From the IMG/VR virus record IMGVR_UViG_2061766007_000491: a stretch of DNA of 54,388 nt; one strand, given 5' to 3'. Below the pieces are notes generated by a model that was not told where the DNA came from, made no database searches, and saw only the letters and a list, made by a program, of their open reading frames with translations. Shown here one piece after another: positions 19,201 to 54,388 of this stretch (position 1 is its first letter; each line of letters starts with the position of its first letter). The translations under genes and the position numbers were made by a program. The DNA comes from an uncultured virus (IMG/VR IMGVR_UViG_2061766007_000491). Taxonomy: Duplodnaviria; Heunggongvirae; Uroviricota; Caudoviricetes.

Positions 19201-21237
19201 ATGGCTAAGAATAAGAATGATTACAGTTCAATGTGTCGCCTGAGCAATCCAAAGATGGCTACAGGCATATTGCCACTTGATATTATTACGAACGGTGGAA
19301 TCGTGAGGGGCGATATTGTAGCCCTCACCGCAGCCGAAGGTGTGGGCAAGTGTCTCACCAAAGATAATATCATCTACACGGCAGAAGGTTTACGCAGACT
19401 GGCAGATTTGGTGGAAGTGCCTGGTCTGGCTGGTGAAGGAACCAGTATAGTGGCTGAGGTACGTTTACAAGTGTTAGGTCAGGTACATTACAGTAAGAAG
19501 CTGTACCATAGAGGCGTGAGTCCTGTTTATAAGCTGACAACGAAGTGGGGTCATACGATCACGGCTACACCTGAGCATAAGGTTCGTATGGCAAGCGGAG
19601 AATGGAAGGATGTTTCCGACATAAATGTCGGGGAGAAGGTCGAGCTTAACTACGAGGAACATGGTGCAGAGGTACAGAGACCTTTAACGTATCCGATATG
19701 CGCAGAAGTAAGTGATGATGTGCGTCAGGAGATCGGTGGGCGTGAGTGTTGGGTGATGGGTTATCTGTATAGCCACACAGCACTATGCGCTGGGAATTTC
19801 GGTACAGGTAAGTTTTATGCCTATGTTGATATGATGGATATTTCAGAGCGTGAGGATAAGATAGCTCTGGTGGACACTCTTCAAAGCCTGGGTGCTGATG
19901 TCGTGTTGACAGGCGAAAGCATTATCAAGTTCGCATACGATCAAAAGAGCTTCATGGGCGCAGCGTTTAACCGATGGGAAAAGAAGTCTGCGAGAATACC
20001 TTGGTTTGTCTGGAAAAACAGTTATGAGAACCAAGTCCAGTTCGTTCTAGGTTACATGGCGAAGTCGGACGTAAAAGAGTGTTTCTCTGATGGTGCAGTG
20101 CGTTTCCATAGTTATGAAGCAGCACGTTTCGCAAAAAACGTGTTCCAGTTGAACAAGAGTAATTATAAGATATACTGCGATTGTGGTTCATGGTATGTAG
20201 GCGAACTTGATTTTAATGGCGAGGGCGAGGACACAGTGGTCAGTGTTGAATACGCTGGCATGGAAGAGGTGTTCGACATCCAAGACAGTGATTGCAGTTG
20301 CTTTATCGCTGAGGGTATCGTGGTTCATAATAGTACAACCATGATGCAGTTGGTAAAGAACAGGATTGCACAGGAACAGAATGTGGCTTTTCTGGACGTG
20401 GAAACAGGGTTCACTGAGGATATTCTGCGAGACAGTTATCATGTGTTGGAATACCATAGCTGTGAGATTGGCCAGAATAAGCTGTTTATGGTATCACCGA
20501 CTACTTGGGCAGAGGTAGATGAACTGTTTACCAAGATATTGGAATCGGACTATTACAGCGATATTATCATTGACTCGATCAGTAGTATTATCAGCAGTGG
20601 GTTAGGCATTAAGAACATTGAACAGGGTGCTGCCATTGGTGAGGATGCGAGGATGCAGAGCTTATTCCTGAGAAAGTATAAGCCATTGTTACGAGCAAAG
20701 GGTGTGACGCTCTGGTGTGTCAATCAGGTTCGTGCGAACATTAGCAATACAGGATTCAGCGGGTTCGGTGCGCCGTTGACAAAGCCGTCTGGCGGTAAGG
20801 CGTTAAAGCACATGGCTGATATTTTGCTAACGATGACAGCAGGTGAGCCTATTACGAGACGAGGTATCAATACTATCAATCAGGACGATAAGGCTGTTAT
20901 TATTGGCAATAAAGCATGGTTGAAAGCGGATAAGAACCGCAGAGCAATGCCTAAGATTAAGGTGATGATAGCTATTCTGTTCGGTCTGGGCGTGAGCAAT
21001 CAGATGAGCCTTTTTGATATATTATTGAAAAGTTCGTACTTGACACAGAGCAGTCCTGGGCGTTATGTTCTGAACGGCTTTGATGACCAAAAGCTGCAAG
21101 GACAGGAAAAGGTCTTTGCGTACATCCGAGACAACTATGCAGAGTTATTGCCCTGGTGTGAAAAGCAGGGTATCTTGAACCTGATTCAAGAGGGGATTCA
21201 GGTTGACGATGAAATAGAGTCTGTGGATGCAGAATAA
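19201..21237 (+). CDS. RecA/UvsX-like recombinase containing an intein
   Basis: TGILPLDIITNGGI, Walker A AEGVGK/S, FLDVE, IIIDS, VNQVR, PSGGKALKH. Confidence 0.9.
   Translation: MAKNKNDYSSMCRLSNPKMATGILPLDIITNGGIVRGDIVALTAAEGVGKCLTKDNIIYTAEGLRRLADLVEVPGLAGEGTSIVAEVRLQVLGQVHYSKKLYHRGVSPVYKLTTKWGHTITATPEHKVRMASGEWKDVSDINVGEKVELNYEEHGAEVQRPLTYPICAEVSDDVRQEIGGRECWVMGYLYSHTALCAGNFGTGKFYAYVDMMDISEREDKIALVDTLQSLGADVVLTGESIIKFAYDQKSFMGAAFNRWEKKSARIPWFVWKNSYENQVQFVLGYMAKSDVKECFSDGAVRFHSYEAARFAKNVFQLNKSNYKIYCDCGSWYVGELDFNGEGEDTVVSVEYAGMEEVFDIQDSDCSCFIAEGIVVHNSTTMMQLVKNRIAQEQNVAFLDVETGFTEDILRDSYHVLEYHSCEIGQNKLFMVSPTTWAEVDELFTKILESDYYSDIIIDSISSIISSGLGIKNIEQGAAIGEDARMQSLFLRKYKPLLRAKGVTLWCVNQVRANISNTGFSGFGAPLTKPSGGKALKHMADILLTMTAGEPITRRGINTINQDDKAVIIGNKAWLKADKNRRAMPKIKVMIAILFGLGVSNQMSLFDILLKSSYLTQSSPGRYVLNGFDDQKLQGQEKVFAYIRDNYAELLPWCEKQGILNLIQEGIQVDDEIESVDAE
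19351..20331 (+). mobile_element. Intein (327 aa) in the Walker A motif of the recombinase
   Basis: Starts CLTKD, block B ATPEH, ends FIAEGIVVHN followed by Ser; central degenerate LAGLIDADG-like helices. Confidence 0.9.
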
Positions 21238-21255
21238 GTGTGTTTGAGGTGTGGG

Positions 21256-22515
21256 ATGAAGGTAAAGATTCATAATTTCCAATCCATTGCAGATGCCGAA
21301 TTGACGTTTGACAAGGGTTTAATAGCGATCACTGGCCCGAATAGCTCTGGGAAGAGTGCAATTTTCAGAGCGTTAAGGTCAGTGATACAGAACCCTTCGA
21401 CTGCCAAGCATTCTGTGAAAAAAGGTACAAAGCGAGCCGAGGTTACTGTTTCTGGACTCGATAATGCACCTGATGTTACTTGGGCAAGAACCTCACTGGA
21501 AAGCAGTTATAAGACAGCAGAAGGTGAGTTTCAACGGGCAGGTCGCAATAACGTCTATGACTTTTTACCTTCATTCCCGCTTAAAATGGACGGAGCGAGG
21601 ATGTTGAACTTTCAGACGGAATGGGATACGCTGTTTCCGTTCGAGAAGAGCAATACCGAGCTATACACTTTATTTGAACGTATATTCAGTGTAGTGGATA
21701 GTGCTTCTATCGTGAATGTGATGAAGCAAGACGAGAAGGAAGCGAAAGCAAAGCTGAACAATACGATTGATGAATTGAACAAGCTGTCTCAACGAGAACA
21801 ACTGAGAAAGGATATTTTTACCGATGACCAGAATGAGGCTATGGTGCTGAACCTGGTTAAAAAGGTAGAGGAGACAGAGACTTTAGCCAGTGCAGCGAAA
21901 GAAGCGTTTGGTGCGCTAAGTACATGGTCTAGTTTGTTAGAATTAGCTAAGAAGGTTACAGACATAACCGTTTCAGACACCGACATAACAACCGTGAAAC
22001 AAGCGTTAGACCTTCGTAAAGACTATGATACGGTCTGTGAGCTTTCAAAGTTACTGGCTTTATCAAACATTTCCCCTATAGAGTGCTTCATAGGGGGTAT
22101 TGAAGAATACTTCGCAATAGCGAGGGACTTGGAGGATTTGGAAACTATGACTAGAATCGTCAATAGCTTTTCTCTTGATACACCACTATTTGACGATGGT
22201 TCACTAGATGTAGTTTCACGGGCATTAGCGATGCGTGCTGATTACCTAAACTTAACTAAACTTGAATCACTTACAACTGAAGCACAAGGGGTTCAAGATA
22301 TAAATTCTTCTCTTACTGCGCTGGATGAGTTATCTAGCGTCTTGCCAAAAATCACACAACTCAAAGATGCCCTCACTTTATACGAAGAACTAAAGAAGAA
22401 AGAAGCAGAACTCGCTGAATTGGAGAAGGATTTAGCAGTGGTGAATGCTGAATTAAATAAAATAAATGTGTGTCCGTTATGCGGTACACCAATAGGAGAC
22501 CATAAACATGAATAA
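21256..22515 (+). CDS. SbcC/Rad50-like ATPase, N-terminal part
   Basis: IHNFQSI, Walker A GPNSSGKS, Q-loop, coiled coil ending in zinc hook CPLCG. Confidence 0.85.
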   Translation: MKVKIHNFQSIADAELTFDKGLIAITGPNSSGKSAIFRALRSVIQNPSTAKHSVKKGTKRAEVTVSGLDNAPDVTWARTSLESSYKTAEGEFQRAGRNNVYDFLPSFPLKMDGARMLNFQTEWDTLFPFEKSNTELYTLFERIFSVVDSASIVNVMKQDEKEAKAKLNNTIDELNKLSQREQLRKDIFTDDQNEAMVLNLVKKVEETETLASAAKEAFGALSTWSSLLELAKKVTDITVSDTDITTVKQALDLRKDYDTVCELSKLLALSNISPIECFIGGIEEYFAIARDLEDLETMTRIVNSFSLDTPLFDDGSLDVVSRALAMRADYLNLTKLESLTTEAQGVQDINSSLTALDELSSVLPKITQLKDALTLYEELKKKEAELAELEKDLAVVNAELNKINVCPLCGTPIGDHKHE

Positions 22516-26443: not shown

Positions 26444-26627
26444 AGGGACGCTGAATTACAGCGTGACCTGATTGAATTTGAGATTGCGGATAAGATTGCA
26501 GGTCTGGCACGGTTATTAGACATTAGCGTACCTGAATTGCGTGAGCTAGTGCCAGTGGAAGATGATTTTGACCTGTTACATGAAATGTTCCGCATGGCGA
26601 TTGAGTATAGAGAAAAGAGGAAGCGAC

Positions 26628-38985: not shown

Positions 38986-40362
38986 ATGACAATTCTTTTC
39001 AAAGACATTAAGAAAGCTCTCGGATTTTTGCACATTACAGGCAAGGAAAGCCTGTGGGCAGCCAGGAACGTACTGGTGAATATCAGTGCGGACAGTGTGA
39101 AGTTTTCCTTTGCGACACCCTTCGAGTACAAAACGAAGGATAGAATCTGCTGTGACCCAACAGAATGGCTAAATCGGGTTGCAGAGGACGAGAACGAGGG
39201 ACACAGACTCTACACTGTAGAGAATCTGGGATGCCAGATTATCGTAGATATTTATACCCAGGACTATGGGTATCAAGTACCTATCAATGAGTTTGTGGGT
39301 GACGTGAGTGTGTTTCAGGCGTTGCTCTCCGAAAAGAAGCTCAAGACAGTGGAGTTGTTTGTGGACACTGACCATAAGTGTTGGGGTTTTAAGACTCCTA
39401 CAGGTGTTGAGATAACCAAGGGTGAGTTGAAGGACACGACTGTGCTGGGCAAGACAAAGTATCTGTATAGTCTGCCTGTGTTGCAAAATCCAGAGGAAAG
39501 CCCGATAGGTCTCTTTAATGGTGAGGCTAAGAAGGTATTGGATGCCTGTCCGCAAGCGGAAGAGTCTCTGCGTTCAGAAGAGTCTAGCCGTTGTGTGTTG
39601 CAGGGTATCAATCTGAGGGCAAAGGGTGACTTCTGGTATGCGTACAGCACCGATGGACGTACCCTGACGGAGTACGAGATCAAGACTCCGAACAACCTGA
39701 CTGTGGTGTCTGAACCGTTTAACCACTTCTTGCTGAACGTGTTGAAGTGGAAAGCGATTGCAGGGTTCAAAGAAGTGCGACTCACACCGTGCTATGTGCA
39801 AGCGAACCCGAATGCAAAGACCGACTCGGCTAAGGATGAGAAGCGGGCGTGTTATGTGCAGTTGGAAGAGGGGTCACTGAACATTGAATTTGTGATACTG
39901 GAACAGGAAGGTGCGTTCCCTGCGGTGGATAGGGTGATTCCTGATAAGCCTATGAAAAACCATATCGAGATAACCAATTACGATGTAGAGGCTATCTGTG
40001 ATACATTCTACAACAGCTTTTCTAATACGAAGTATCACAAGCTGAGTGAGAGTAGTGAGGAAAACCTGTATATCTACTTCCAAGCGGACGAGACTGATCG
40101 CTTAGTGGTGACTATTAAGCAACGGTCGTATAAGAAGGATGCCCAGACCGTGAAACAGCGTGAATTGAAGCTGAGTCCAGCGTTTCCGAAGCTGGGTGAT
40201 ACGGGGTATATGTTCTTTAATGCTAAACTTTTTGTCAATTTGCTCCGTGAATTGACAAACAACGGCGAGGACGTGGTTCTCGAATTTGATGACCAGTATA
40301 GTCCTGTAGTGCTGACCTCAACGGTTGGCAAGGCGGTTGTGATGCCGATGCGGAGTATATAA
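38986..40362 (+). CDS. DNA polymerase III beta-clamp-like protein
   Basis: SRCVLQGINL, STDGRTL, GAFPAVDRVIP, FNAKLF, C-terminal VVMPMR; strong AAGGAGG RBS. Confidence 0.8.
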   Translation: MTILFKDIKKALGFLHITGKESLWAARNVLVNISADSVKFSFATPFEYKTKDRICCDPTEWLNRVAEDENEGHRLYTVENLGCQIIVDIYTQDYGYQVPINEFVGDVSVFQALLSEKKLKTVELFVDTDHKCWGFKTPTGVEITKGELKDTTVLGKTKYLYSLPVLQNPEESPIGLFNGEAKKVLDACPQAEESLRSEESSRCVLQGINLRAKGDFWYAYSTDGRTLTEYEIKTPNNLTVVSEPFNHFLLNVLKWKAIAGFKEVRLTPCYVQANPNAKTDSAKDEKRACYVQLEEGSLNIEFVILEQEGAFPAVDRVIPDKPMKNHIEITNYDVEAICDTFYNSFSNTKYHKLSESSEENLYIYFQADETDRLVVTIKQRSYKKDAQTVKQRELKLSPAFPKLGDTGYMFFNAKLFVNLLRELTNNGEDVVLEFDDQYSPVVLTSTVGKAVVMPMRSI

Positions 40363-40899: not shown

Positions 40900-41621
40900 C
40901 AGATATTAGTTTTTGTGTAAGTTGGTCTAACTTTGTGCAGACCGTGAATGAGAAGCTGGAACATGGACTTGAGGATGGTACGTTCAAGTCTAACAAGGTC
41001 GAGATATGTGTGGATGAGGATGTTGTCAAGAAAGTGGGCTTTGATCTGATAGTGAATGAAGCTGTTGGTCAGATAAAGGCACATATCAGGGCTATGGGCA
41101 AGGGTGATGGCGGTAGGATTGATGTGGAGTATAGGGATGCCAGCTTTGATATTGTAGAAGGGAGTAAGGCTCGCTATGCAATTATAACGGATAATAGTGT
41201 TAGGGTCATGGTGGTGTCTAACCTGTGTACTAAACTTAGTATGAGTCACCCTGTGCTGGACAGCATCTTTAAGCAGGTGTGTGGTTCATTAGGAGAACTG
41301 ATGCGTACAGAGTGCAGAAAGGAGAATCTGGAACGGTGGAAGCACAAGGAAAACGTGGTTAAGATGTGTGTGCAGAGAACAGTGAGTAATGAACTGACGT
41401 TCTTTGCAAAGCATAACTTGGCTTATACAGTTAAACCTGGTACATTCAACAGTACATGGGATGTGGAGTTTAGTGAGAAGCATGAGACCTATACTCTGAC
41501 AGTGGACTTGGATATGTTTCTGGGTACGATCAAGGTGTATGTCCTGAACACTGCCAAACATAATGAGGTAATGGTATCGGAAACACTTGAATTTGAGAAA
41601 GTAAATGAGCATAACGACTAA
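40896..41621 (+). CDS. Hypothetical protein
   Basis: 241 aa, ATGA-coupled. Confidence 0.65.
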   Translation: MTDISFCVSWSNFVQTVNEKLEHGLEDGTFKSNKVEICVDEDVVKKVGFDLIVNEAVGQIKAHIRAMGKGDGGRIDVEYRDASFDIVEGSKARYAIITDNSVRVMVVSNLCTKLSMSHPVLDSIFKQVCGSLGELMRTECRKENLERWKHKENVVKMCVQRTVSNELTFFAKHNLAYTVKPGTFNSTWDVEFSEKHETYTLTVDLDMFLGTIKVYVLNTAKHNEVMVSETLEFEKVNEHND

Positions 41622-42795
41622 AAAAGGTGATGCGGGGATGACCGACATTCTGTTCGGTCAACGTGTGCGGAAGGATGACCTGCATATCCAGACCGTTGGG
41701 GCTATGGATATGTTTCAGGCACAGTTAGGCGTTATCCGTGCGAGAATCCCAGGCTGGAAAAAGAAGTGGGATGCGGTCAAGGATTGTAAGGACAGCACTA
41801 CAAAGGAATGGTCTGATGGGTTCTGGGACACGCTGGAAGGTGTGATCTATCGGGCAGAGATTGACCTACAGGCTGCAATGGGTGTATGTTCCACACCTGC
41901 GAGGGTCGAGAACAAGGTCACAGTGCAGTGGGGTAAGTTGTTCACCGATGAAAAGATAAAGCCGATGGAGGACTTGATACACTCTACAGAGAGTGTGTTA
42001 AAGGAAGCTGTGAAGGAAGGTGAAGTCAAGTGCGGGTTCTTAAAATCGAATTGGCTCGTTCCAGGCAGTGACCCTGTGAGCGCACAGTTTAACTTAGCCA
42101 GAACCTATTGCAGACACGCAGAGAGTTGTGTGTGGAATCTGGTGCTGAATAGATACCTGACTGATCGCTTAGAGCTTGCTGAGAGAGTGGCAAAGTGGCT
42201 GAACCGTTTGTCTGATGTGTTGTTTATCCTGACTCGGTATCTGGCCGAGCGAGTGATTCCACAGTATCGGTATTGGATGCACGAACGGAATAAGGCAAAT
42301 AACGAACGGAAACACCCCAAGAAGCTCTTTAAGGAGCTAAAGAGGGTAAAGACACTCACCCCACTGCAAAAATCCCTTGTATGGCGAATTGAGAACGCTT
42401 ATAAGCAAAATGATCTCATAGCCCAGAGACGGGATAAGCTGGTGCGGTATTTTATCCAGAAGGTTATAAAGCCGACTGTGAGGGTGAAGGACTGGAAGGG
42501 TCGGTATAGCCAATATACGATGATGACTTGTCAGGTATTCTTAGAGTTGGCGCAGAATCTATCGGATGCGGTGAAGCAGTGCAAGTGGGACTGGTTAGAG
42601 TTCTTTCATGCAAAGGGCGAGGGCTGGGATAAGATGGTGCTGGACGTGATTATCTATAGCAGTGAGGATAATTATGCGAAGTATGAGTACCTGTTTGATG
42701 TGCATTTGGATTGCTTGAAGCTGAAAGTGTACTATACCGATTATGAGACTAAAACGCTTATAACGGAGAAAAGTTTTTCTTATGAGAGTGTTTAG
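41605..42795 (+). CDS. PduO-type ATP:cob(I)alamin adenosyltransferase with an extra C-terminal domain
   Basis: ITTKKGDAGMT, RVRKDD, LARTYCRHAE, WLNRLSDVLFILTR; ~180 extra aa. Confidence 0.85.
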   Translation: MSITTKKGDAGMTDILFGQRVRKDDLHIQTVGAMDMFQAQLGVIRARIPGWKKKWDAVKDCKDSTTKEWSDGFWDTLEGVIYRAEIDLQAAMGVCSTPARVENKVTVQWGKLFTDEKIKPMEDLIHSTESVLKEAVKEGEVKCGFLKSNWLVPGSDPVSAQFNLARTYCRHAESCVWNLVLNRYLTDRLELAERVAKWLNRLSDVLFILTRYLAERVIPQYRYWMHERNKANNERKHPKKLFKELKRVKTLTPLQKSLVWRIENAYKQNDLIAQRRDKLVRYFIQKVIKPTVRVKDWKGRYSQYTMMTCQVFLELAQNLSDAVKQCKWDWLEFFHAKGEGWDKMVLDVIIYSSEDNYAKYEYLFDVHLDCLKLKVYYTDYETKTLITEKSFSYESV

Positions 42796-43667: not shown

Positions 43668-44108
43668 ATGCCTGATGGGTCTGGTCACACTGGTTATTTA
43701 TTTGATGGAATACCATATACATTTATGAATAATTGGTCGGGTAAAGAGAAGTTGGAGATACGAGACTGGCATACCTTTGGGGAATGGCTGGCCTGTGGGT
43801 TAGAGTGTTATATGCTCTATAGAGGGATATATACGTTTTATCGGTTAGCACCATACCTGAGCTTTTCGGATAATTGGTATGACATGGTTATGTATTTTGA
43901 CGCTGCGCTAAAGGATGCACAGTTGCCTATGGATATTGTATCAGAGTATTCAGTTAAGCATGAAGAGGATAAGACTATAGACTTGTACTTTATGTGTAGG
44001 CGCAGAGCCGTGTGGAGTACCGTTATGTGCGCATTGCGTTTGACAGTGGAGTATGGTCAGGAACCTATGTTTGAAGTAAAAGTGTCTGGGGTGTACGTTC
44101 AGCCGTGA
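43668..44108 (+). CDS. Hypothetical protein
   Basis: ORF; start uncertain. Confidence 0.55.
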   Translation: MPDGSGHTGYLFDGIPYTFMNNWSGKEKLEIRDWHTFGEWLACGLECYMLYRGIYTFYRLAPYLSFSDNWYDMVMYFDAALKDAQLPMDIVSEYSVKHEEDKTIDLYFMCRRRAVWSTVMCALRLTVEYGQEPMFEVKVSGVYVQP

Positions 44109-44284
44109 TGACTGTCTATTTTATAAAGACCGCTTTTGCGGGTTTGAATGGTTGGAATCTATGTCATAGTGGTTTCAGTAATGACGGCTATAGTGGATGC
44201 AGTGCTGTTCCAAGACGGTGCTACTTTTCTTCTTAGTGCGTTGGGTGTGGTGTTTGGCAGTGCGATTTATTTGAGGGAGTTATT

Positions 44285-44515
44285 ATGAGAGTTGCTGATG
44301 AGTGTGTGTATGGGAGACCAGTGGTTATCCCTGATGAGGTGTATGAACCGCAATTCATTGAGTGTTTGACGAAACAACAGGCATACGATCTCTTAGAGAA
44401 GTTCTGGCAAAGAACAGGCTTTAGTGTTGTGATCGAGAATGATGAAGGGTTTGTGTATGAGGATTGCGGTGATTATTTAGTCTGTACTAACATTGTGAGT
44501 TATAGAAGGAAATGA
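44285..44515 (+). CDS. Hypothetical protein
   Basis: GAGGGAG RBS; ATGA overlap with the next ORF. Confidence 0.6.
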   Translation: MRVADECVYGRPVVIPDEVYEPQFIECLTKQQAYDLLEKFWQRTGFSVVIENDEGFVYEDCGDYLVCTNIVSYRRK

Positions 44516-44700
44516 CTACCGTACAAGAGATTATCGTTATATTCACGGCGGTTTTATCACTCGCCTGTGCTATTTTTGTGTTGTATGCTCTGAATAAAAT
44601 GTGGAAAGGGCTGACGGTGCTGGGTAAGACATGGTTTTTCTGTCTGTTTACAGAGGCATTGATTTTTACGACCTATGCTGTATATGTTCTGTTTAAGTAA
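44512..44700 (+). CDS. Small membrane protein
   Basis: Two TM segments. Confidence 0.6.
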   Translation: MTTVQEIIVIFTAVLSLACAIFVLYALNKMWKGLTVLGKTWFFCLFTEALIFTTYAVYVLFK

Positions 44701-44702
44701 TT

Positions 44703-44885
44703 ATGAGTGAGGCATTACAGACAATAGTGTTTTTAGTGAGCGCAGTAGGCTGGCTATGCTGTTTAGGGGTGTGGTTGCACGAGGAAGAGGGTGAAAACAG
44801 AGTATGGCCTTTTTGTGGGTTTATAATTTTTTTCGGTATTTTTGTAACTTTTTTTGTTATTCACTTGACAGGAGTGTGTGGATGA
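44703..44885 (+). CDS. Small membrane protein
   Basis: Two TM segments. Confidence 0.6.
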   Translation: MSEALQTIVFLVSAVGWLCCLGVWLHEEEGENRVWPFCGFIIFFGIFVTFFVIHLTGVCG

Positions 44886-44893
44886 CATAAAAT
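44865..44893 (+). promoter_or_regulatory. Sigma70-like promoter upstream of the RNA gene region
   Basis: TTGACA-N17-TAAAAT. Confidence 0.6.
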
Positions 44894-45008
44894 GCGTGTG
44901 TTGTTAATCCCATAACAACATGATCGCCAAAGTAGGGGTACTGGTGCGTTAGGTATGTTTATGAACGCATGAACAGCCAGAAAGGTATCACGAAAGAGGC
45001 GGTCAATG

Positions 45009-45122
45009 ATAGAGGGTCATGCGAGTCACACTTGCGCCCGTTTAGCATTGGGGAATGCGGTTTACGAAGTGGGTTCGACACTCACAGGACGCCCGTGACT
45101 TGGGTAAACCATGAATCTCTAT
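45009..45122 (+). ncRNA. Putative structured RNA with a tRNA-like T-arm
   Basis: T-arm GTGGG-TTCGACA-CTCAC and GCATT/AATGC hairpin inside GAGTCAC/GTGACTT and ATAGAG..TCATG/CATGA..CTCTAT stems; no anticodon arm. Confidence 0.4.
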
Positions 45123-45126
45123 TTAA

Positions 45127-45203
45127 TGCCCTGTAGCTCAGTTGGATAGAGCGGGTGACTGTTAATCACTAGGGCGGTGGTTCGAGTCCACCTGGGGCAG
45201 CCA
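45127..45203 (+). tRNA. tRNA-Asn(GTT)
   Basis: TAGCTCAGTTGGATAGAGC D-arm, GGTGA-CTGTTAA-TCACT anticodon arm, GGTTCGAGTCC, encoded CCA. Confidence 0.93.
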
Positions 45204-45304
45204 TTTCTCTCTGTGATAGAGAGATTTATACAATACTTGTAAGAGGTTAGTTCTCCTTTCTTGACCTCTCTGTGTTGCAGGGTATTGTGTGTTCATATTG
45301 AATG

Positions 45305-45338
45305 CCGTGTGTAGCTAAGGTTATACACGGTTTTTTAT
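45305..45338 (+). terminator. Intrinsic terminator directly upstream of cassette array 1
   Basis: CCGTGTGTAGC-TAAG-GTTATACACGG followed by TTTTTT. Confidence 0.75.
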
Positions 45339-45341
45339 TGT

Positions 45342-46523
45342 CTGAATGGTGTTATCCGAGGTGGGCATTACAGTACAAGCAAGGTGTTATATGCTAGGTG
45401 TAGCGGATATAGGAATGCGCATAGTCATGTAGAGAGTCAAATAGGGTTTCGCTGTGAATGGTGTAGAAAGGGGTGGCAGATCAAATATAGCATCTAATAG
45501 TCAGAGGTGTGGGAGTAGGTTAGTGCATTACAGTAGGGGTACAGAGATAAGTTCCTTTGGGTTTCGTCTGTGAATGGTGTATTGATGGGAGGGGCAAATA
45601 GTAATGCAGCAATGTATGTGCGGTGTGGTGGGTATAGGAATGCAGATGGTACAAGATGGAACGCACATACAGCAGTGAGAGGGTTTCGCTGGGGTGTGAA
45701 TGGTGTAGAAAGGAGGGTGGATAGAGGTGCTAGGTGGATGTTAGCTAGTGATTATGTAAGAGCTAGTTATAGGGATGTTTCTAAGGTAGTGGCGATACAG
45801 GATATAATAGGGTTTCCCTGTGGATGGTGTATTCAGGGGTGGACGTGCAGGGTTACAATCTAGGTATATTAGGTGTGGTCTTAGGAATGGGAGTGAAGTT
45901 TTGAGTTATGGAGGTAGCGGAGTAGGGTTTCGCTGAATGGTGTAGTGAGAGGCAGTGGTTCCTATAAGGGTACGTCAGTAGTTTATTTTAGGAGTGGTTA
46001 TAGAATTGGGACTAATTTAAGGAGTAGGGTAGCAGAACACATAGGGTTTCGTCTGAATGGTGTACGAAGGGGTGGTACAGGTATAGTGTCAGTTACAATG
46101 TTTCAGGCGAACAGGGTAAGGTGTGGGAGTAGATACACTAGGCAATTTAGCGGTGATAGTAGTTTAATAGGGTTTCGTTTGGGGTGTGAATGGTGTAATA
46201 AGAGGCGGGAATTGGTCAAGGTTTCAGGGGGCAGATGCTTATAGATGTGGTCGAAGAGTAGGGAGTGTGTTAAGTAATGAAGTAGGGTTTCGTTCTGAAT
46301 GGTGCTATACGGAGTGGGAGATATAGCTACAGTCCGTTTTATATGCGAGGTGGGTATAGGAATAATGGTGCGTTGAGTTATGTGAATAAGACGTTAGGGT
46401 TTCGTTCTGAATGGTGTATATCGAGGTGCAGGTGCTATTAGTATGAATGTAATGTGGTTTAGAGGAGGTGAAAGAGGTGGGGTATATGCGAGGTCGTATG
46501 CGACTTCTAATGTAGGGTTTCGT
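45342..46523 (+). repeat. Cassette array 1: 10 variant C-terminal segments of the FGE/CLec-fold proteins
   Basis: Units start (C/G)TG(A/G)ATGGTG near 45342, 45454, 45570, 45696, 45820, 45933, 46053, 46186, 46295, 46407 and end GGGTTTC(G/C); each reads NGVxRG...GFR without stops. Confidence 0.9.
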
Positions 46524-46550
46524 TGACAACTCTCTGGGGCATGGTATAGT
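46523..46550 (+). promoter_or_regulatory. Sigma70-like promoter abutting the last cassette of array 1
   Basis: TTGACA-N16-TATAGT with TG extension. Confidence 0.65.
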
Positions 46551-46578
46551 GGGGTTGGCTATATTGTGAGGTGGGTAT

Positions 46579-48057
46579 ATGATAGATAGGAATTGGGTTA
46601 TAGATGTAGATGACATTGCTTGCTGGCTCGACCAGATGGACAATCCGCAACGGTATGGGGCGCAGAGCATGGGTAACTTCCCTGTGACGTGTGATGTGAG
46701 TTATCAGGGCAGTCCGTGTACGAATGTGTTTGGCTATTTACAGCCTGATTATGGCGGGAGTTATTGGCCTCCTGGGACGTATGCGCCTGGGTGGAGTGCA
46801 ACACTGCATAATGACGCTGTAAAGGTGACTGTGCCTGCTACATGGGGGGATTATTATTCCAGTGTAACGAGTCCTAGCAGTGGGTATCATGCGAAGTGGA
46901 TATTAGACAAGGACATACCTGGTGGCTTGATGATGGAAATGAATAATCCGTCAGGGGGCAACGGCGGTGTGGTCAACAGGGATATACGCTCTTGGGTGAA
47001 CATAGATGCGTTGTTATCACAGCAGAAGGAGTGTGTGATTAGCTTTGAGGGCAGAGGCAGTGCAGGGATGCAGGTACGCACAGCGGTTCATGGTAAGTAC
47101 GCAAGCGCAGATAGTAACGCTTTTCTGTATCAAGAGGACATTGATCTGGATGAGGCTTGGCACGAATACGCTGGACACTGGCATTGTACGGGTGTGAGCG
47201 GTTCAGGGAGTTTTTACTTTTTCGGGAATCTGGTGGCTGGACAGTTGCAGGTGCGGAATCCGATGCTGACTACAACAGGGAGGAAATGCAGATACACGCC
47301 TGGGACACGAGGGGCTACAGTGAATACGGGGGGTGGATGGCAAGATGTTACCTTTCAGGGTAACAATGTGGACTTAACAGACGGTGCTTTTGACTGGAAC
47401 GATTGGATTTTATCGCTTGGCAAATACTTCACAGATACCAGTTCCATATTGAATGTGGGGTCAGAGGTTATATCCCCGACTTATAACAGGTATAGGTTTA
47501 TCACGATTGAATGCTGGGTGCGTAAGAATAGCCTAGCCAGTGACGCTATAACGGACTGTGCCATATACGGAGCGCAGAATACAAGCGGTCTGGTGCTGAA
47601 TCGGTACGGTCAGTTTAACTTTGTATGTGCCAACAGTTCGAGCAATCTGGATAGGTATGAGTACCCTGGTATTGACAGCAATAGGATTATCCAGTATATC
47701 AATACCGATCAATGGTATCATGTCGTGCAGATGATAGGGAATAAGCACGTTTGTTATGTGAATGGTGTGAAGGTGCATGAGACGAGTGATCTGGCTTGGA
47801 ATCCCACCATAGGCACTAGCTTTAAGTTTTTACACGGAAATGCAGACTGGCTGACTCAGACAGTGAACACGAATAACAGCAAGTCCAGAGTCATGCAGAA
47901 TGGATGCTGGTCAGTGCAGTGCTTGAGAGTGTATAAACGGTTATTGACCGATGAAGAGGTTTTAGCGTGTTACAACGCTGAAAAGGAAATGTATGTGGGG
48001 GCGTTAGGTGATGCCTCTTTTGATACGAATAATATAGCGGATATAGCGTATGCTTGA
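46579..48057 (+). CDS. LamG/ConA-like lectin-domain protein with an upstream carbohydrate-binding-like domain (possible virion adhesin)
   Basis: ITIECWV, QWYHVV, YVNGV, LRVYKRLLTDEEV...YNA. Confidence 0.8.
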   Translation: MIDRNWVIDVDDIACWLDQMDNPQRYGAQSMGNFPVTCDVSYQGSPCTNVFGYLQPDYGGSYWPPGTYAPGWSATLHNDAVKVTVPATWGDYYSSVTSPSSGYHAKWILDKDIPGGLMMEMNNPSGGNGGVVNRDIRSWVNIDALLSQQKECVISFEGRGSAGMQVRTAVHGKYASADSNAFLYQEDIDLDEAWHEYAGHWHCTGVSGSGSFYFFGNLVAGQLQVRNPMLTTTGRKCRYTPGTRGATVNTGGGWQDVTFQGNNVDLTDGAFDWNDWILSLGKYFTDTSSILNVGSEVISPTYNRYRFITIECWVRKNSLASDAITDCAIYGAQNTSGLVLNRYGQFNFVCANSSSNLDRYEYPGIDSNRIIQYINTDQWYHVVQMIGNKHVCYVNGVKVHETSDLAWNPTIGTSFKFLHGNADWLTQTVNTNNSKSRVMQNGCWSVQCLRVYKRLLTDEEVLACYNAEKEMYVGALGDASFDTNNIADIAYA

Positions 48058-49249
48058 TTTTTTGGAGATAGTAGGGAGTAGTGCCACGTTTAAGTTGTCA
48101 GGTGGTGCGATCAGTAACTTTGCAAAGACACCGACCTTGAGGGTGCAGTGTATAGATCAACAGAACCATGCCGTGTTTGAATATACATTCACGGGAAGTG
48201 AATCTACAACGTATGGCAGTGCGTTACCGTATGGGTATTATGAGGTGCGTGTCGTGGCTTATAATAGCTATGGTCAGGTGGTCAGTAAGACAAAGCCGTT
48301 ACTTTTGTATAAAACACCGATGGCAGGGTTCGTGTATATTAAGAAAGGCACGTTCACGATGGGCAGTCCTGAAAGTGAAGTGGGACACCAAGCGAATGAG
48401 GCACAGCAGAGCTTTACCATAAGCAAGGATTATCTTATCCAGAGAACGCCCTGCACACCGAAGTATTTGAGTGCTGTTAAGACTGCGTATGCGACATTGT
48501 ATAACAGTGGGGTGACTCTGACTAGGGTTAAGATCACGAATGCGGAATGGTCAACCACAGCAATCAATCAGGGTACAATGTACGGTAGCTGGTCTGCCAG
48601 TGATGAGACGCCAGCAGTTAGTATCTCGTGGGAGCGTATCATGGATGTGGACACAGCGAATAGTACGATTAGTGGCAGTGCTGCGCCTTACACGGCTACT
48701 GCGACACCGTTCAGTAGTAGTGGTGTGGGTATCTGCACGGCGTTGAATGCGTTGAATCGAAGCGGTCAGGATTATTATTTGAGTGGGTATCAGTATTGTT
48801 TACCAACGGAATGCCAGTGGGAATTTGCGTGTAGGGCAGGTTGTTCCGATGCGTTGTATAATGACACGGCTTTGGATGCCACGACAACGCCAGCCTATAC
48901 AGCAGCCAGCAGTCCCCAGCCGAACCTATGCGAGATAGCTTGGTATAACTATAATTCAGGCGGTTCTAAGAAAAAGGTGGGATTGTTAAAGCCAAACGCA
49001 TGGGGGTTATACGATATGTTAGGGAACGTATGGGAATGGGTGCTAGACCAGTACAATGCGAGTTACGCAGCAGTAGCTACAGCAGGTGAAACGGTGCATG
49101 GCTCGCCAGTTTACACGGAAGTGTCAAGTGGCTCCTGGGGTGTGAATGGTGTATTAAGGGGTGGGCATTATGGGAATCAAGCTGGTAGGTTAAAGCAGAG
49201 AGCGAATGTATTGTTTAGNNNNNNNNNNATAGCTCTTAGCCCAGCATAG
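48050..49249 (+). CDS. FGE-sulfatase/C-type-lectin-fold protein, target gene 1 (N-gap in its variable tail)
   Basis: GTFTMGSP.SE, PAVSISW, LPTECQWEFACRAG, KPNAWGLYDMLGNVWEW, VLRGG; ends IALSPA* after the gap. Confidence 0.9.
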   Translation: MLDFLEIVGSSATFKLSGGAISNFAKTPTLRVQCIDQQNHAVFEYTFTGSESTTYGSALPYGYYEVRVVAYNSYGQVVSKTKPLLLYKTPMAGFVYIKKGTFTMGSPESEVGHQANEAQQSFTISKDYLIQRTPCTPKYLSAVKTAYATLYNSGVTLTRVKITNAEWSTTAINQGTMYGSWSASDETPAVSISWERIMDVDTANSTISGSAAPYTATATPFSSSGVGICTALNALNRSGQDYYLSGYQYCLPTECQWEFACRAGCSDALYNDTALDATTTPAYTAASSPQPNLCEIAWYNYNSGGSKKKVGLLKPNAWGLYDMLGNVWEWVLDQYNASYAAVATAGETVHGSPVYTEVSSGSWGVNGVLRGGHYGNQAGRLKQRANVLFXXXXIALSPA

Positions 49250-50320
49250 CGCAGTGTTGGAGGCGGAGCCGACAACAGCATAGGATTTCCACGGCGGATG
49301 CCGTTGTGCCGAAGGCACTTATGGTATATACTAATAGCAAGTATTTTTTACTTACTATTAGTATAATTATTTTATAAATAATAGAGCCATATTTAGTTAT
49401 GGATGTCCAGCCCGAAGAGGCGAGACGAGTGGGGATAGAAGGGATAATGGTGTATTAAGGGGTGGGCAGTATAGCAGGGATGCTTACTTAGCACGGTGTA
49501 GTGGGTTAAGGAATGGATGGGGGAAGTGGAATCAAGGTGGTGGAGTAGGGTTTCGTATTGGGGTCGAGTCCGCAGAGACCAGACGGCAGTGGTTGAATGG
49601 TGGTGTAATAAGGGGAGCAGGGTTAGGGTATGCTTATGCTTTCAGGACGAGGGTAGGTTTTAGGTTGACAGGATATAACTTTAAGTATAGTAGTGTAAGT
49701 GACTTAGGGTTTCGTTGTGGGGTAGGCGTGAATGGTGTAAGAGCGGATAGAGGCGGTAGATGGGGTTTAGGGTCAGATTATATACGTTGTAGTTATAGGG
49801 ATAGGAGTAGTCAAGGGAGTGGTGGTGATAAGGTAGGGTTTCGCTGAATGGTGTAAATAGGGGAGGTTGCATTAGGGCAGAAGAACCAGCATGGAGGGTA
49901 AGGAATGCTAGTAGGATGAATTGGTATGGTTTAACGCATACATGGAATATAAAAGGGTTTCGTCTGAATGGTGTTAGTAGAGGTGGTGCTTATGTGCGAA
50001 CAGGAGGTCATACTAGGAGTAGTGGGAATAGGTGGCATAGCAGTTCAAGGGTGGATGTGAATAGTGGAATAGGGTTTCGTTCTGAATGGTGATTATAGAG
50101 GGGGTTCGTATAAAAGTGGGCAACCAATGTATATTAGAATTGGTTATAGAAGTGGTTTTAGTAGGGGGTATGTGAGTGTTTACATAGGGTTTCGCTGTGA
50201 ATGGTGTGTTAAGGGGTGGAGTATATACAAGAACAGGTGAATACAATAGAAGTAGTGGGTATAGGTTTAATAGAGTAATGACGTTAGTGAATAGTGGAAT
50301 AGGGTTTCGTTTTGTGTAAA

Positions 50321-50338
50321 TTGTTCCACGTGGAACAA
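50321..50338. promoter_or_regulatory. parS-like palindrome, copy 1
   Basis: TTGTTCCACGTGGAACAA matches the bacterial parS consensus TGTTNCACGTGNAACA. Confidence 0.75.
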
Positions 50339-50592
50339 AGGTGAATGGTGCGTTAAGGTCGTATGCGTATGATAGAGCCAGTTTGTATATGAGGAGTGGA
50401 AATAGACGGTCTTATGCAATTAGTGGGACAGGTACAGGTGGTGCATTAGGGTTTCGTTTAGCTGTGAATGGTGTCCGTAGGGGTGGATGTAGCTTAGGGT
50501 CTTTTAGTAATGCGTTTTTTAATAGAATTGTTTATAAGCGAGTTACTGCTATGGATTATGTGTATAATGCGTTAGGGTTTCGTTTGTGTAAA

Positions 50593-50610
50593 TTGTTCCA
50601 CGTGGAACAA
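50593..50610. promoter_or_regulatory. parS-like palindrome, copy 2
   Basis: TTGTTCCACGTGGAACAA with the same TTTGTGTAAA flank as copy 1. Confidence 0.75.
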
Positions 50611-53098
50611 AAGGAATGGTGTCTATCGAGGTGGGCAGGTTGATTCATCCAGTGCAGATAAGCAATGTGTGTCTTATAGGAGTAGTTATCCAGTATTGAG
50701 TTATGTGAATAAGACGTTAGGGTTTCGTCTGAATGGTGTATTGATGGGAGGGGCATATAGTAATGCAGCAATGTATGTGCGGTGTGGTGGGTATAGGAAT
50801 GCAGATGGTACAAGATGGAACGCACATACAGCAGTGAGAGGGTTTCGTCTGAATGGTGTATATCGGGGTGGCAGTGTGACACAAACGGCTAGTGTAGTGA
50901 AGGTTAATTATAAGAGAGGAGATAAGAGGGGCATGACGTATCAGGCAGTAGGGTTTCGCTGAATGGTGTATTGAGAGGTGGAGCATCTAATTCAGCAACG
51001 GTATGGTATTATCGCAGTAGTGGATATAGGAATGTTAAAGGTTTAGAGATAACAGCGGAAAATAGAGGGTTTCGTCTGAATGGTGTGCAGAGAGGTGGGT
51101 CGTGGTTTAATGTAAGTGTGTATTCAAGACATGGTTATAGAAGGGGTGTTGCTTTTAATACTATAGGTAATACAGCGTTTGGGTTTCGTTCTGTGTGAAT
51201 GGTAGTGGAATAGTAAGGGGAGGAGGGTATCATTATCATGCTACAGGTTTTAGATGTGGGAGGAGGATGGCTAGGGCGAATGAATCGTCATTAGGGGGGA
51301 TTTATATAGGGTTTCGCCTGAATGGTGTATATCGGGGTGGAAGCAGTAGTACAAGTTTAGCTAGTAATACGAATAGGAGTGGGCATAGGAGAACAAGGGA
51401 AAAGAATGTAAGTGGGATGAGTGCAGTAGGGTTTCGTATCTGAATGGCGTGGCTAGGGGTGGACAGACAAGTAATTTAGTGGATAGATATAGAAGTGGGT
51501 ATAGGTGGGTATCGAGTGCGAGGACGTATGTGCATGGTGGGATAGGGTTTCGTGCTGTGGGGTGAATGGTGTAATAAGGCCAGCGCATAAGATACATCAG
51601 GCATATATGTATAGGTGTGGAATGAGATATGGATATGCAAGTAGGAATACGGCATGGAATGGATATATAGGGTTTCGTTTATCTGAATGGTGTAGCCAGA
51701 GGTGGATATTATAGTGCAACGTATGGTCATGCAAAGGATTGTAGGAGTGGAAGGAGACGTGAGGACTTTAATAGGAGGGTGGGCAATGTGGTGATAGGGT
51801 TTCGTTCTGAATGTTGTGGTTCGAGGTGGGGCTTATAACAATAGTTCAGATAGGTGTATATGTGCAGGGCATAGGAGGAATACTTATACAAGACCAACAG
51901 CGAATAGTGCGGTAGGGTTTCGTTTGGGGGTGTGAATGGTGTATTGAGGGGTGGGCAGTATGGGAATCAAGCTGGTAGGTTAAAGCAGAGAGCGAATGTA
52001 TTGTTTAGCTATAGTACGGCTTATGTAGGGTTTCGTTCTGAATGGTGCTAGGCGGGCTAGTAGGGTAAACGAGGTTAATAGTGCTAAGGAAGAAAGGTGT
52101 GCGTGGAGAACTCCGAGGGAACGAGATTCAGGGAATGCGAGTATAGGGTTTCGTTCTGAATGGTGTAGATCGTGGGGGCAGTACACATATTAGCTGGAAG
52201 GCATATCAGTATAGGGTTGGGAATCGTGAGACTAACACTAGGAGGACATCAGGGGGTGGATTAGGGTTTCGTTTGGGGTGTGAATGGTGTATTACGGGGG
52301 TCGGGATATAGGAGTCCGTCAATGGAGTTTAGGAATGGTGGGCGTAGGTATCAGAACTATAAGAAGAGTCAATCAGCGGAGAGCTTAGGGTTTCGTTTGA
52401 GGTGTGAAGGGTGCTAGGAGGAGTGTTGCGTTTGATAATACGAACTTTGCAACGTATGGAAGGAGTGGTCGAAGGAATGGAAGCAGTGCTAGGTCGGACA
52501 GAGCGATATACATAGGGTTTCGCTGAGGGTGTGAATGGTGTAGTGTTAAGAGGGGGTGACGCATGGAATACGCTAANNNNNNNNNNNNNNNNNNNNNNNN
52601 NNNNNNNNNNNNNNNNNNNNNNNNNNNNNNNNNNNNCTGAATGGTGCTAGTAGGGGTGGGTATTTTAATAACAGTGCAAGTCTGTTTAGATGTGGTGGAT
52701 ATAGAAATAGCGGTTCATTGAGTTATGTGCATAGTGGGATAGGGTTTCGCTGGGGTGTGGATGGTGTAGAAAGGGGTTGTTATTATAGTTCTAGTTATGG
52801 GTATGCTTCTAGGACTAGGAGCGGACGCAGACAGAGTGTTACAGTGGGTAATGATAATCCAGCAGTAGGGTTTCGCCTGAATGGTGTACGTAGAGGTGGC
52901 GCACATGAGCAGGTATCGAGAAGTGTGAGGTGTTCGTGGAGGGTTGCTAGGTTAAGGGACAATCCTAGTGCCACGTTCGGGTTTCGTCTGAATGGTGTGA
53001 ATCGAGGTGGGAGTTATACGCAGTACAATTTAGTGTATATGTATAGAAGTGGTGGGTTAAGACAACCGTATGTAAGGAGTCATCCATTAGGGTTTCGC

Positions 53099-53127
53099 TT
53101 GACGTTCTGATATGTGTTTGATAGAGT
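53099..53127 (+). promoter_or_regulatory. Sigma70-like promoter abutting the last cassette of array 2
   Basis: TTGACG-N17-TAGAGT followed by GGGGTCGGCTATATTG, like the leader after array 1. Confidence 0.5.
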
Positions 53128-53158
53128 GGGGGTCGGCTATATTGGATAGGGTTGGGTT

Positions 53159-54388
53159 ATGTACGATTTTTTGGAGATAGTAGGGAGTAGTGCCACGTTT
53201 AAGTTGGTGGGTGCAACGCAGAGCGGTTTTGTTAAAGCACCGACATTGAAGGTGCAGTGTGTAGATCAGCAGACGCAGATGGCTTATGAAGAGCCGTATT
53301 ATGGTACGGACGCAGCACAGTATGGAGCGAAACTGCCATGCGGTTATTTTAAGGTGCGAGTGGTCGCCTATAACGAGTACGGTATGGAAATGGCTGGCAC
53401 TAAGCCGTTATACCTGTATAAGACGCTGGTTCCTGGCTTTGTGTATGTCAAGAAGGGTGCGTTTAAGATAGGCAGTCCGTCAACCGAAGTGGGACACCAG
53501 AGCAACGAGAATCAGGCGAACTATGTTTTGACACAGGATTTTATGATACAGCGGACGTGTTGCACGGGTGCGTATCTAAGAGGTGTAGCAGACGCATACC
53601 ATAGTCTGACGAAAACAGGCATTACACGGACACAGATCACGAATGCGACTTGGTACAGTCCTGAGCCAGCATTGCCAGCGGATATGTTCAACTATTCAGG
53701 CAGTGCTGCATGGGTGGGTACAGATGAAACGCCAGCGGTGAGTATATCATGGGAGAGGATTATGGACGTGCAGACGACTAACGCTAACAGTACGGTGAGC
53801 AATCATGTGGCGGTGGCTTATCCGTTCGCTGATTATGCAGGGGTGTGTACCGCTCTGAACGCTCTGAATAGTGCCAGTGATACGGACTATGGATGCAGTG
53901 GGTGGGTTTATACATTGCCGACCGAAGCACAGTGGGAGTACGCTTGCAGGGGTGGCACGACTACGGCGTTATATAACGGTACAGGGCTGGATATGACAGC
54001 AGTGCCGAGCTATACGACAGCGAACAGTCCACAGCCTAACTTGCAGAGGATTGCATGGTACAATTACAATAGCTATGGAAGCAAGAAGGTAGTGGGTCAG
54101 CTAGAACCGAACAGGTGGGGGCTATACGATATGTTAGGGAACGTATGGGAATGGGTGTTAGATCAGTATAATAGCAGTTATACGAGTGTGCTTAATGGTG
54201 GCGAGACACTACACGGGTCGCCAGTTTATACAGAAGTCACCTCTAACTCCTGGGGTGTGAATGGTGTAGTGTTAAGAGGGGGTGACGCATGGAATACGCT
54301 AACAAGCGCAAGTGGATGGAGGTGTGGACGCAGGTATGGGTATAGGAATGTAGGCCCTACTTATACTGGAAAGGCTTTAGGGTTTCGT
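53159..54388 (+). CDS. FGE-sulfatase/C-type-lectin-fold protein, target gene 2 (runs off the window; absent from the ORF track)
   Basis: Frame MYDFLEIVGSSATFKL...LPTEAQWEYACRGG...NRWGLYDMLGNVWEW...WGVNGVVLRGGDAWNTLTSASGWRCGRRYGYRNVGPTYTGKALGFR; paralog of 48050-49249. Confidence 0.9.
   Translation, partial: MYDFLEIVGSSATFKLVGATQSGFVKAPTLKVQCVDQQTQMAYEEPYYGTDAAQYGAKLPCGYFKVRVVAYNEYGMEMAGTKPLYLYKTLVPGFVYVKKGAFKIGSPSTEVGHQSNENQANYVLTQDFMIQRTCCTGAYLRGVADAYHSLTKTGITRTQITNATWYSPEPALPADMFNYSGSAAWVGTDETPAVSISWERIMDVQTTNANSTVSNHVAVAYPFADYAGVCTALNALNSASDTDYGCSGWVYTLPTEAQWEYACRGGTTTALYNGTGLDMTAVPSYTTANSPQPNLQRIAWYNYNSYGSKKVVGQLEPNRWGLYDMLGNVWEWVLDQYNSSYTSVLNGGETLHGSPVYTEVTSNSWGVNGVVLRGGDAWNTLTSASGWRCGRRYGYRNVGPTYTGKALGFR

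Follow-up and report, generated by a model that had tools for sequence, protein, structure and literature searches.

Two surface antigen systems of Borrelia, vlsE/vls in Borrelia burgdorferi and vlp/vsp in Borrelia hermsii, are built from an expression site that bears a promoter and adjoins head-to-tail, promoterless partial copies of the expressed gene, and vlp/vsp additionally has upstream and downstream homology sequences. Here we describe a similar arrangement in a 54,388-nucleotide stretch of DNA from an uncultured virus of the Caudoviricetes (IMG/VR record IMGVR_UViG_2061766007_000491; hereafter the window, meaning the whole stretch analysed), in which two arrays of short silent cassettes lie beside two genes of the FGE-sulfatase/C-type-lectin fold. 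Short bounding repeats, non-reciprocal copying, retention of the donor and a G-rich, C-poor strand are common to the Borrelia systems and the window. The Borrelia systems belong to a bacterial pathogen and vary a surface antigen that faces antibodies, whereas here the carrier is a phage and the protein a C-type-lectin-fold binding protein. Unlike the Borrelia systems, the window also has two expression sites on one cassette pool, silent cassettes that are themselves mosaic, and no single continuous frame.

Stored libraries of partial coding segments that are copied via short homologies into one expressed gene, giving mosaics, are also found in Neisseria pilE/pilS, the Treponema pallidum tprK donor sites, gene conversion from the chicken immunoglobulin pseudo-V genes and copy-choice assembly of the lamprey variable lymphocyte receptors (VLRs), and in this respect the window appears to resemble them. 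Unlike pilE-type systems it contains no G-quadruplex motif (zero G3+N1-7 x4 motifs on both strands of the whole window), and unlike pilS, tprK, pseudo-V and VLR the unit exchanged is a single C-terminal segment of approximately 37 codons, with no deaminase identified.

In the largest class of targets of diversity-generating retroelements (DGRs) the variable region is at the C-terminus of an FGE-sulfatase/C-type-lectin domain, CLec1 (PMC5758913); given this position, the cassettes described here code for that portion of the fold in which DGRs generate diversity. DGRs such as those acting on Mtd of Bordetella phage BPP-1 and on Treponema TvpA share with the window both the fold and where the variable region sits in it, and presumably the purpose, a change of ligand specificity (PMC5758913). 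Unlike DGRs, the window is without reverse transcriptase or Avd and without adenine-specific changes, and where a DGR subjects one template repeat to random mutagenesis, the window holds dozens of stored variants, a selected library.

As here, alternative C-terminal ends are stored beside the adhesin gene in the invertible tail-fibre segments of Mu (Gin) and P1 (Cin) and in the R64 shufflon. In them a site-specific recombinase acting on inverted repeats chooses among 2-7 alternatives, whereas here at least 40 alternatives are available, the units are direct and no such recombinase was found. The gp38 adhesins of T4-type phages determine host specificity, and their segments are thought to be exchanged via short conserved motifs between different phage genomes; unlike the window, they have no silent arrays within one genome. 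The hypervariable segments of gp38 lie between glycine-rich motifs (PMC3157838). Full-text literature searches returned no account of a phage binding protein served by arrays of silent cassettes, and the best explanation of the sequences presented below, cassette-based gene conversion in a phage acting on a C-type-lectin-fold variable region, would be new.

Results

Two arrays of silent cassettes adjoin two lectin-fold genes

On the + strand of the window there are 43 copies of the motif GGGTTTC, 40 of them beyond position 45300, and on the reverse strand there is one. The units that end with it are 102-123 nt long, opening with AAT GGT GT (Asn-Gly-Val) and closing with GGG TTT CGY (Gly-Phe-Arg). 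There are 39 complete silent cassettes and one partial one, promoterless and in a single orientation, each of which encodes an alternative version of the last 34-41 residues of two paralogous genes of the FGE-sulfatase/C-type-lectin fold (consensus NGV.RGG...R.G.R...GFR). The usual 5' anchor is TG AAT GGT GT, which in some cassettes is replaced by the variant TGGGGTGTGAATGGTGT. The sequence displays the following anatomy of arrays and expression sites.

45304..45331, + strand: terminator-like hairpin (12-pair stem, then a T run) directly 5' of the first cassette of array A
45345..46523, + strand: array A, 10 silent cassettes of 105-123 nt, head to tail, all open in the NGV...GFR frame
46523..46550, + strand: promoter-like site TTGACA-16-TATAGT between array A and the expressed genes (11/12 matches; TG precedes the second hexamer)
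46579..48057, + strand: Laminin_G_3/concanavalin-like lectin gene (PF13385, E = 1e-09), upstream of gene 1 and overlapping it
48050..49249, + strand: expressed gene 1, FGE-sulfatase/C-type lectin fold (PF03781, E = 3.8e-26)
49145-49218, + strand: gene 1 variable region, interrupted by an N gap (49219-49228)
49229-49249, + strand: gene 1 tail, IALSPA and stop; a contig loose end, TAGGGTTTCGT, stands immediately before 49229
49229..49285, + strand: conserved 3' flank of the expression site (57 nt), tail codons plus a small hairpin GTTGGAGGCGRAGCCGACAAC approximately 30 nt past the variable region; invariant in 7/7 expression-site flanks
up to 49445: variable AT-rich spacer after the conserved flank
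49446..53098, + strand: array B, 29 complete silent cassettes, a partial cassette (52534-52576) and an N gap (52577-52636)
53099..53127, + strand: promoter-like site TTGACG-17-TAGAGT between array B and gene 2
53159..54388, + strand: expressed gene 2, FGE-sulfatase fold (PF03781, E = 8.2e-28)
54260-54388, + strand: gene 2 variable region; the last letters of the window are GGGTTTCGT

Gene 2 is a paralogue of gene 1 (61% identity) with the same kind of terminal unit, which in its relatives is followed by the tail LALSPA and a stop. The constant body of an expression site runs up to ...TCCTGGGGTGTG before the cassette core, and the PF03781 match covers profile positions 2-252 of 255, reaching the GFR end. 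Relatives of gene 2 with solved structures are formylglycine-generating enzymes, PvdO, PorK/GldK and the DGR variable protein TvpA (2y3c). An AlphaFold2 model of gene 2 from a 27-row alignment had a mean predicted local distance difference test score (pLDDT) of 54, falling below 50 in the variable-region part, which is too poor to inform the fold.

Expressed variable regions match silent cassettes

A metagenome scan recovered five contigs without N gaps, L075-L079, that have the same genes and arrays. It can be seen from the window and these contigs that expressed variable regions have silent counterparts. The gene 1 variable region (49145-49218) differs from the silent cassette at 51935..52036 (+ strand) by 2 mismatches in 74 nt, with identity beginning at GGGGTGTGAATGG, and the gene 2 variable region matches the partial silent cassette at 52534-52576 (+ strand), which is truncated by the N gap, over 43 nt without a mismatch. 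In L077 the expressed variable region agrees with silent cassette 4314 of the same contig (78 nt, 0 mismatches), and that of L078 is identical to L075 silent cassette 1999 (0 mismatches in 117 nt), the identity extending from TGAATGG to GGGTTTCGTCT. Identity between expressed and silent copies is bounded by the anchors, starting at (GGGG)TGTGAATGG and ending at GGGTTTCGTCT. These matches identify the donors, and since a silent copy is present on the same contig for 3/3 testable expression sites, transfer is non-reciprocal and leaves the donor in place.

The tail, spacer and array of L077 (55-3243) and L079 (800-3988) are 100% identical over 3189 nt, with 0 mismatches and 0 gaps, but the expressed variable regions of the two contigs are unrelated, the break falling 5 nt ahead of the 3' anchor GGGTTTCG. 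L077 starts only 54 nt before this identity begins, and its variable region represents one assembly path. The presence of unlike variable regions on an identical background of this length indicates that the variable region was recently replaced, and gives indirect support to switching that may be frequent in a clonal population. Together with the donor matches it shows that a unit delimited by short conserved anchors is replaced non-reciprocally at the level of DNA. Orthologous genes all had different variable regions although their bodies have 93-96% nucleotide identity, and contigs from two other studies match gene 2 only to 54266-54268, the position of the 5' anchor.

Two expression sites of L075 (L075:1-105 and L075:5872-5976) have an identical variable region (105 nt, 0 mismatches), after which 9 differences separate their 3' flanks over 95 positions. 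Many contig joints with short sides (21-35 nt) proved to be anchor-only matches to other arrays and were not used.

The cassettes are kept as coding information

The reading frame was analysed in 40 units of the window, namely the 39 silent cassettes and the gene 2 variable region. Of the 1519 codons in the NGV...GFR frame, 0 are stops, whereas the two alternative frames contain 129 and 190, and none of the units (0/40) is open in either alternative frame. When the cores were shuffled within cassettes (1000 shuffles), the mean was 99 stops and the minimum 75. Over the window and the five related contigs, 178 of 193 candidate units match both anchors and frame, one of the 178 being an artefact that spans a gene tail; the remaining 15 comprise 11 that are open but have variant 5' anchors, 3 truncated where a contig begins and 1 false hit, which lies in a 3' flank. 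Orthologous silent cassettes have 108 synonymous and 176 non-synonymous differences (37 pairs, non-independent), giving a ratio of non-synonymous to synonymous polymorphism (pN/pS) of approximately 0.48. From the lack of in-frame stops, the closure of the other frames and this ratio we conclude that the cassettes are kept as coding information, and these comparisons show that their coding capacity is under selection.

The units have no start codon of their own, and the spacers between cassettes, which are 2-15 nt long, are a multiple of three in 31/126 cases. Direct translation of the cassettes, or a recoded stop, is ruled out because the junctions shift the frame. Promoter-like sites were not enriched (17 against 20.4 +/- 5.3 in shuffles), and the two best + strand sites adjoining the arrays are those just 5' of the genes (46523-46550 and 53099-53127).

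Cassettes share blocks and form mosaics

An initial annotation of the window had proposed that cassettes are shared between arrays and recombine into mosaics. Our analysis confirms the observation, and supports its interpretation as segmental exchange. The cassette at 45570-45689 recurs at 50729-50848 as a 120-nt duplicate that has the single internal difference originally described, A45597/T50756 (Asn/Tyr), together with two more at its ends (45570 G/C, 45689 C/T). A 33-mer is found exactly at 46373-46405 and 50696-50728, in otherwise unlike cassettes, and the match ends on both sides; the duplicate and this block each connect array A with array B. We also recovered the exact 25-mer of the 3' block at 50057-50081 and 50287-50311 and the 26-nt 3' pattern, with one difference, at 51527-51552 and 52724-52749 (its second copy had been placed near 52725), and the cassettes at 45696 and 49728 are diverged relatives as claimed.

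Shared blocks might be no longer than expected from the constraint of a common scaffold and from base composition, and both of these were preserved when the codon columns of the window's 40 cassettes (780 pairs) were shuffled 100 times. Exact blocks of at least 20 nt are present in 4/780 pairs, against a shuffle mean of 0.43 (largest 2), and blocks of at least 25 nt in 2 pairs, against 0 in 100 shuffles, so the longest blocks exceed this expectation. Blocks of at least 16 nt, found in 6 pairs against 4.6 in shuffles, are not above chance, and the signal is therefore carried by the longest blocks only. Within the window it consists of one whole-cassette duplicate and three shared 3' ends. The same comparison for 156 non-redundant cassettes of the multi-contig set (12,090 pairs, 37 family pairs left out, 200 shuffles) identified 53 non-family pairs with a common exact 20-mer, against 9.2 +/- 3.7 in shuffles (largest 22), 11 with a common 25-mer, against 0.075, and 7 with a common 30-mer, against 0.

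The five related contigs support segmental exchange through homogenisation of the 33-nt block and through chimeras of two and three parents. The L075 orthologues of the two cassettes lack the block and have different 3' ends, indicating that it was homogenised, as a conversion tract, in the lineage of the window; between W_46298 and L075_2581 the first 75 nt differ at 1 position and the final 33 nt at 6. Chimeric cassettes can be recognised from their sequences: the 5' ~44 nt of L078_6920 are as in L075_1175 and the part from position 52 to the end as in L077_2546, while L075_3169 has three parents. Partial blocks of at least 30 nt at 90% identity or more were found in 22 pairs, of which 8 are 5'-anchored, 11 3'-anchored and 3 internal (one of the 22 is an artefact), and the block edges concentrate around codons 10-16 and 22-26.

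Segmental exchange would make the repertoire combinatorial rather than limited to 40 cassettes, as the initial annotation had suggested. The count of 40 holds for the window (39 complete plus 1 partial) but is an underestimate overall, since the array of L075 has at least 21 cassettes past the gene 2 orthologue. Array order, when compared with the related contigs, is conserved in part, with many replacements.

Related contigs and database searches

After clustering at 80% identity over 85% length, 93/178 cassettes were singletons. A full-length relative on another contig exists for 13 of the 40 window cassettes, while 2 form the internal duplicate and 25 are without a relative; the orthologous genes flanking the arrays have 90-96% nucleotide identity.

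Searches of IMG/VR gave 0 matches to the junction pattern, with only distant FGE relatives present there, and 0 matches to the pattern of the array palindrome described below. The three-anchor pattern returned 32 IMG/VR loci, none with a match to the cassette hidden Markov model (HMM), and these are chance matches or other repeats. Nothing was found in GTDB genome contigs by a protein-pattern scan or by a two-junction DNA pattern. Among GenBank phages there was no match by blastn with the Laminin_G_3 (LamG) gene plus gene 1, or by tblastn with the open reading frame (ORF) at 38986-40362, and tblastn with gene 2 returned cyanophage and other relatives at up to 37% identity, without arrays.

A different module array is found in an unrelated phage, at L026:7735-10585 (IMG/VR G001, 87,814 bp, direct terminal repeats, rated 100% complete). 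It consists of approximately 17 mini-ORFs in tandem, 45-56 aa in length. All have a start codon of their own, and in those inspected a ribosome-binding-like GGAGG stands ahead of it. Their module is RGGSW..CRSA.R..GFR(I/V)V, and the last mini-ORF continues in frame into the N-terminus of an FGE body from which the C-terminal module is missing, an arrangement that, from the sequence, looks like a circular permutation. The complete L026 genome (87.8 kb) has no RVT_1 match. L045:6668-7861 and L062:9689-10549 are single ORFs in which four (L045) or two (L062) in-frame modules resembling variable regions lie N-terminal to an FGE body that stops short of the usual C-terminal module. Judged by predicted domain order, they have the permuted design of L026, with the modules co-translated.

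Genome setting and cis elements

Public metagenomes containing the stretch are from bovine and sheep gut, and the 54-kb window looks like part of a large ruminant-gut phage genome. Long ORFs are nearly all on the + strand and GC skew is strong along the whole window; in the arrays (45345-46523 and 49446-53098) it reaches its maximum of 0.58, and C makes up 9.6% of the + strand, against 15.8-17.5% in the rest of the window. Matches to PHROG and Pfam profiles include a class II ribonucleotide reductase, thymidylate synthase, dihydrofolate reductase (DHFR), RNA ligase and a crAss001_48-related protein, and there are two tRNAs. Three further genes, known from PHROG/Pfam matches, encode candidate enzymes for the process discussed below:

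19201..21237, + strand: UvsX/RecA-like recombinase with intein (Intein_splicing E = 5.8e-11)
21238..22515, + strand: SbcC-like ATPase
26562-27533: SbcD-like phosphoesterase, a candidate together with the SbcC-like ATPase

A group of genes at 28833-31529, 33430-36255 and 41605-42795 encodes a radical-SAM protein (898 aa), the B12-dependent class II ribonucleotide reductase and a cobalamin adenosyltransferase homologue. A D12-class adenine methyltransferase profile is divided over the adjacent ORFs 5550-5984 (first part) and 5972-6376 (last part), and the region 5550-6376 is predicted to be a split or frameshifted gene. Ahead of array A, at 44865-45203, there is a near-consensus promoter, TTGACA-17-TAAAAT, followed by approximately 230 nt without an ORF and then tRNA-Asn. 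A search of 44000-54388 against Rfam passed a tRNA alone, with two remaining weak matches (E = 0.36 and 0.72), the former being Y-RNA-like (YrlA) at 45048-45175.

The inter-cassette spacers contain an 18-bp perfect palindrome, TTGTTCCACGTGGAACAA, at 50321..50338 and again at 50593-50610, and nowhere else in the 54-kb window. It sits in an insert of approximately 31 nt (50313-50343 and 50585-50614) that recurs in the arrays of the relatives, and is present in 7/126 junctions over five contigs. Many unrelated metagenome contig loose ends adjoin it. The palindrome and the conserved hairpin that follows the variable region may be cis elements of the system itself.

Discussion

We favour, with a probability of roughly 0.7, the reading that the arrays are a silent cassette library of the vls/pilS type, from which non-reciprocal, homology-guided conversion would transfer sequence into the expression sites and between cassettes. 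A cassette would be copied, with the donor unspent, into an expression site between the 5' anchor and the 3' anchor GGG TTT CGY, the likely route being homology-guided gene conversion or template switching. The same copying would act among silent cassettes, within or between arrays, and where it stopped inside a cassette it would leave the duplicates, shared ends and mosaics described above. Both the enzymes and the rate of switching are inferred, with the UvsX-like recombinase and an SbcCD-like nuclease as candidate enzymes. A fuller proposal, to which we give somewhat less than even odds, is that this constitutes programmed phage diversification free of reverse transcriptase, in which two lectin-fold genes would receive complete or segmental copies from a stock of at least 60 pre-selected cassettes, giving combinatorial receptor specificity.

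Several points weigh against the conversion of silent cassettes. The anchors, at approximately 10-17 nt, are short for recombination of the RecA type, and the idea that breakpoints fall at conserved microhomology is unsupported, since local conservation is 0.17-0.53 at block edges and 0.59 on average. A mosaic origin of expressed variable regions is hinted at by one of the 2 differences between the gene 1 variable region and its donor, which by reading of the sequences equals cassette 49446, a weak sign. Contigs from the source sample have one variable-region form, although the four runs, being in the form of contigs only, would leave minor variants invisible. The window is possibly not the whole phage genome, and a reverse transcriptase or recombinase may lie elsewhere. 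Finally, the products of genes 1 and 2 are putative binders of host receptors, with a putative receptor-binding role in the virion.

We consider it unlikely that the arrays are instead many template repeats of a retrohoming system derived from a DGR, which would be transcribed and copied into the variable region by a reverse transcriptase whose gene lies beyond the window. In favour of this, fold and variable-region position agree with CLec1 DGR targets, and the stretch from gene 1 to array B gave no sign of a terminator, so that transcription of the array is possible. DGR targets have a hairpin after the variable region, and the small hairpin approximately 30 nt after the variable region is conserved at 7/7 expression sites. 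However, Pfam searches found no reverse transcriptase (RVT) or Avd family among the 58 ORFs of the window, and the donor is the same as the variable region (0/43, 0/78 and 0/117 mismatches), with the 2 differences of gene 1 falling at donor G and not at A. Cassette cores have K, E, Q, M or W at 121/1519 residues, and only 46% of core codons are NNY; in our own reasoning, mutagenesis of AAY codons therefore cannot produce the cassettes. The structurally analogous array in L026, a complete phage genome without an RVT_1 match, also argues against this mechanism. Exchange of cassettes by a site-specific recombinase acting on the junction GGGTTTCGY..TGAATGGTG, as in an integron or shufflon, appears very unlikely, even though the junctions are short and stereotyped and the array-specific 18-bp palindrome could be a protein-binding site. 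The same Pfam searches of the 58 ORFs found no integrase, invertase or resolvase family; all units are direct, the motif occurring on the reverse strand once in the window and 0-1 times in the relatives, which excludes inversion; donors are retained and breakpoints fall inside cassettes too; and the junctions of 2-15 nt have no attC-like structure, which speaks against an integron.

It is decidedly unlikely that the arrays are the debris of tandem duplication, with recombination that is rare or takes place between co-infecting phages and no programmed switching. This would fit the single dominant form in the source sample and the finding that just 4 pairs in the window are above chance, but against it stand the flawless upkeep of the open frames and a pN/pS below 1 in units that have neither a start codon nor a promoter of their own. 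Expressed regions are identical to their donors, yet orthologous silent cassettes are 2-10% different, and different variable regions are found on identical backgrounds. Since the N gaps of the window fall exactly at repeated cassettes, one could also imagine an assembly artefact in which population variants of one hypervariable region were strung together. We regard this as scarcely credible: junctions between cassettes do not occur in the gene, where GFR precedes the tail codons; arrays, with order partly the same, are present in five independent contigs free of N gaps; and contigs from a second assembler, from the same sample and thus partly independent, match 45659-46402, 49527-50725 and 50818-51988 with 0 differences.

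Three routes are known by which phages retarget their binding proteins: point mutation, the exchange of modules from one genome to another, and diversification through DGR hypermutation or invertible segments. If conversion from silent cassettes is correct, a resident silent cassette library would be a fourth route, drawing on stored variants instead of random mutation, and cassette exchange of this kind is also a compact natural design for binder engineering. The tandem modules beside permuted FGE bodies in L026, L045 and L062 would widen module arrays into a broader strategy. The C-type-lectin scaffold would have been recruited twice for targeted diversification, by unrelated mechanisms, and the phage would possess a counterpart of immunoglobulin gene conversion or lamprey VLR assembly on a scaffold that DGRs mutate randomly. 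If the proteins bind host receptors, the library would bear on how rumen phages track the changing surfaces of their hosts.

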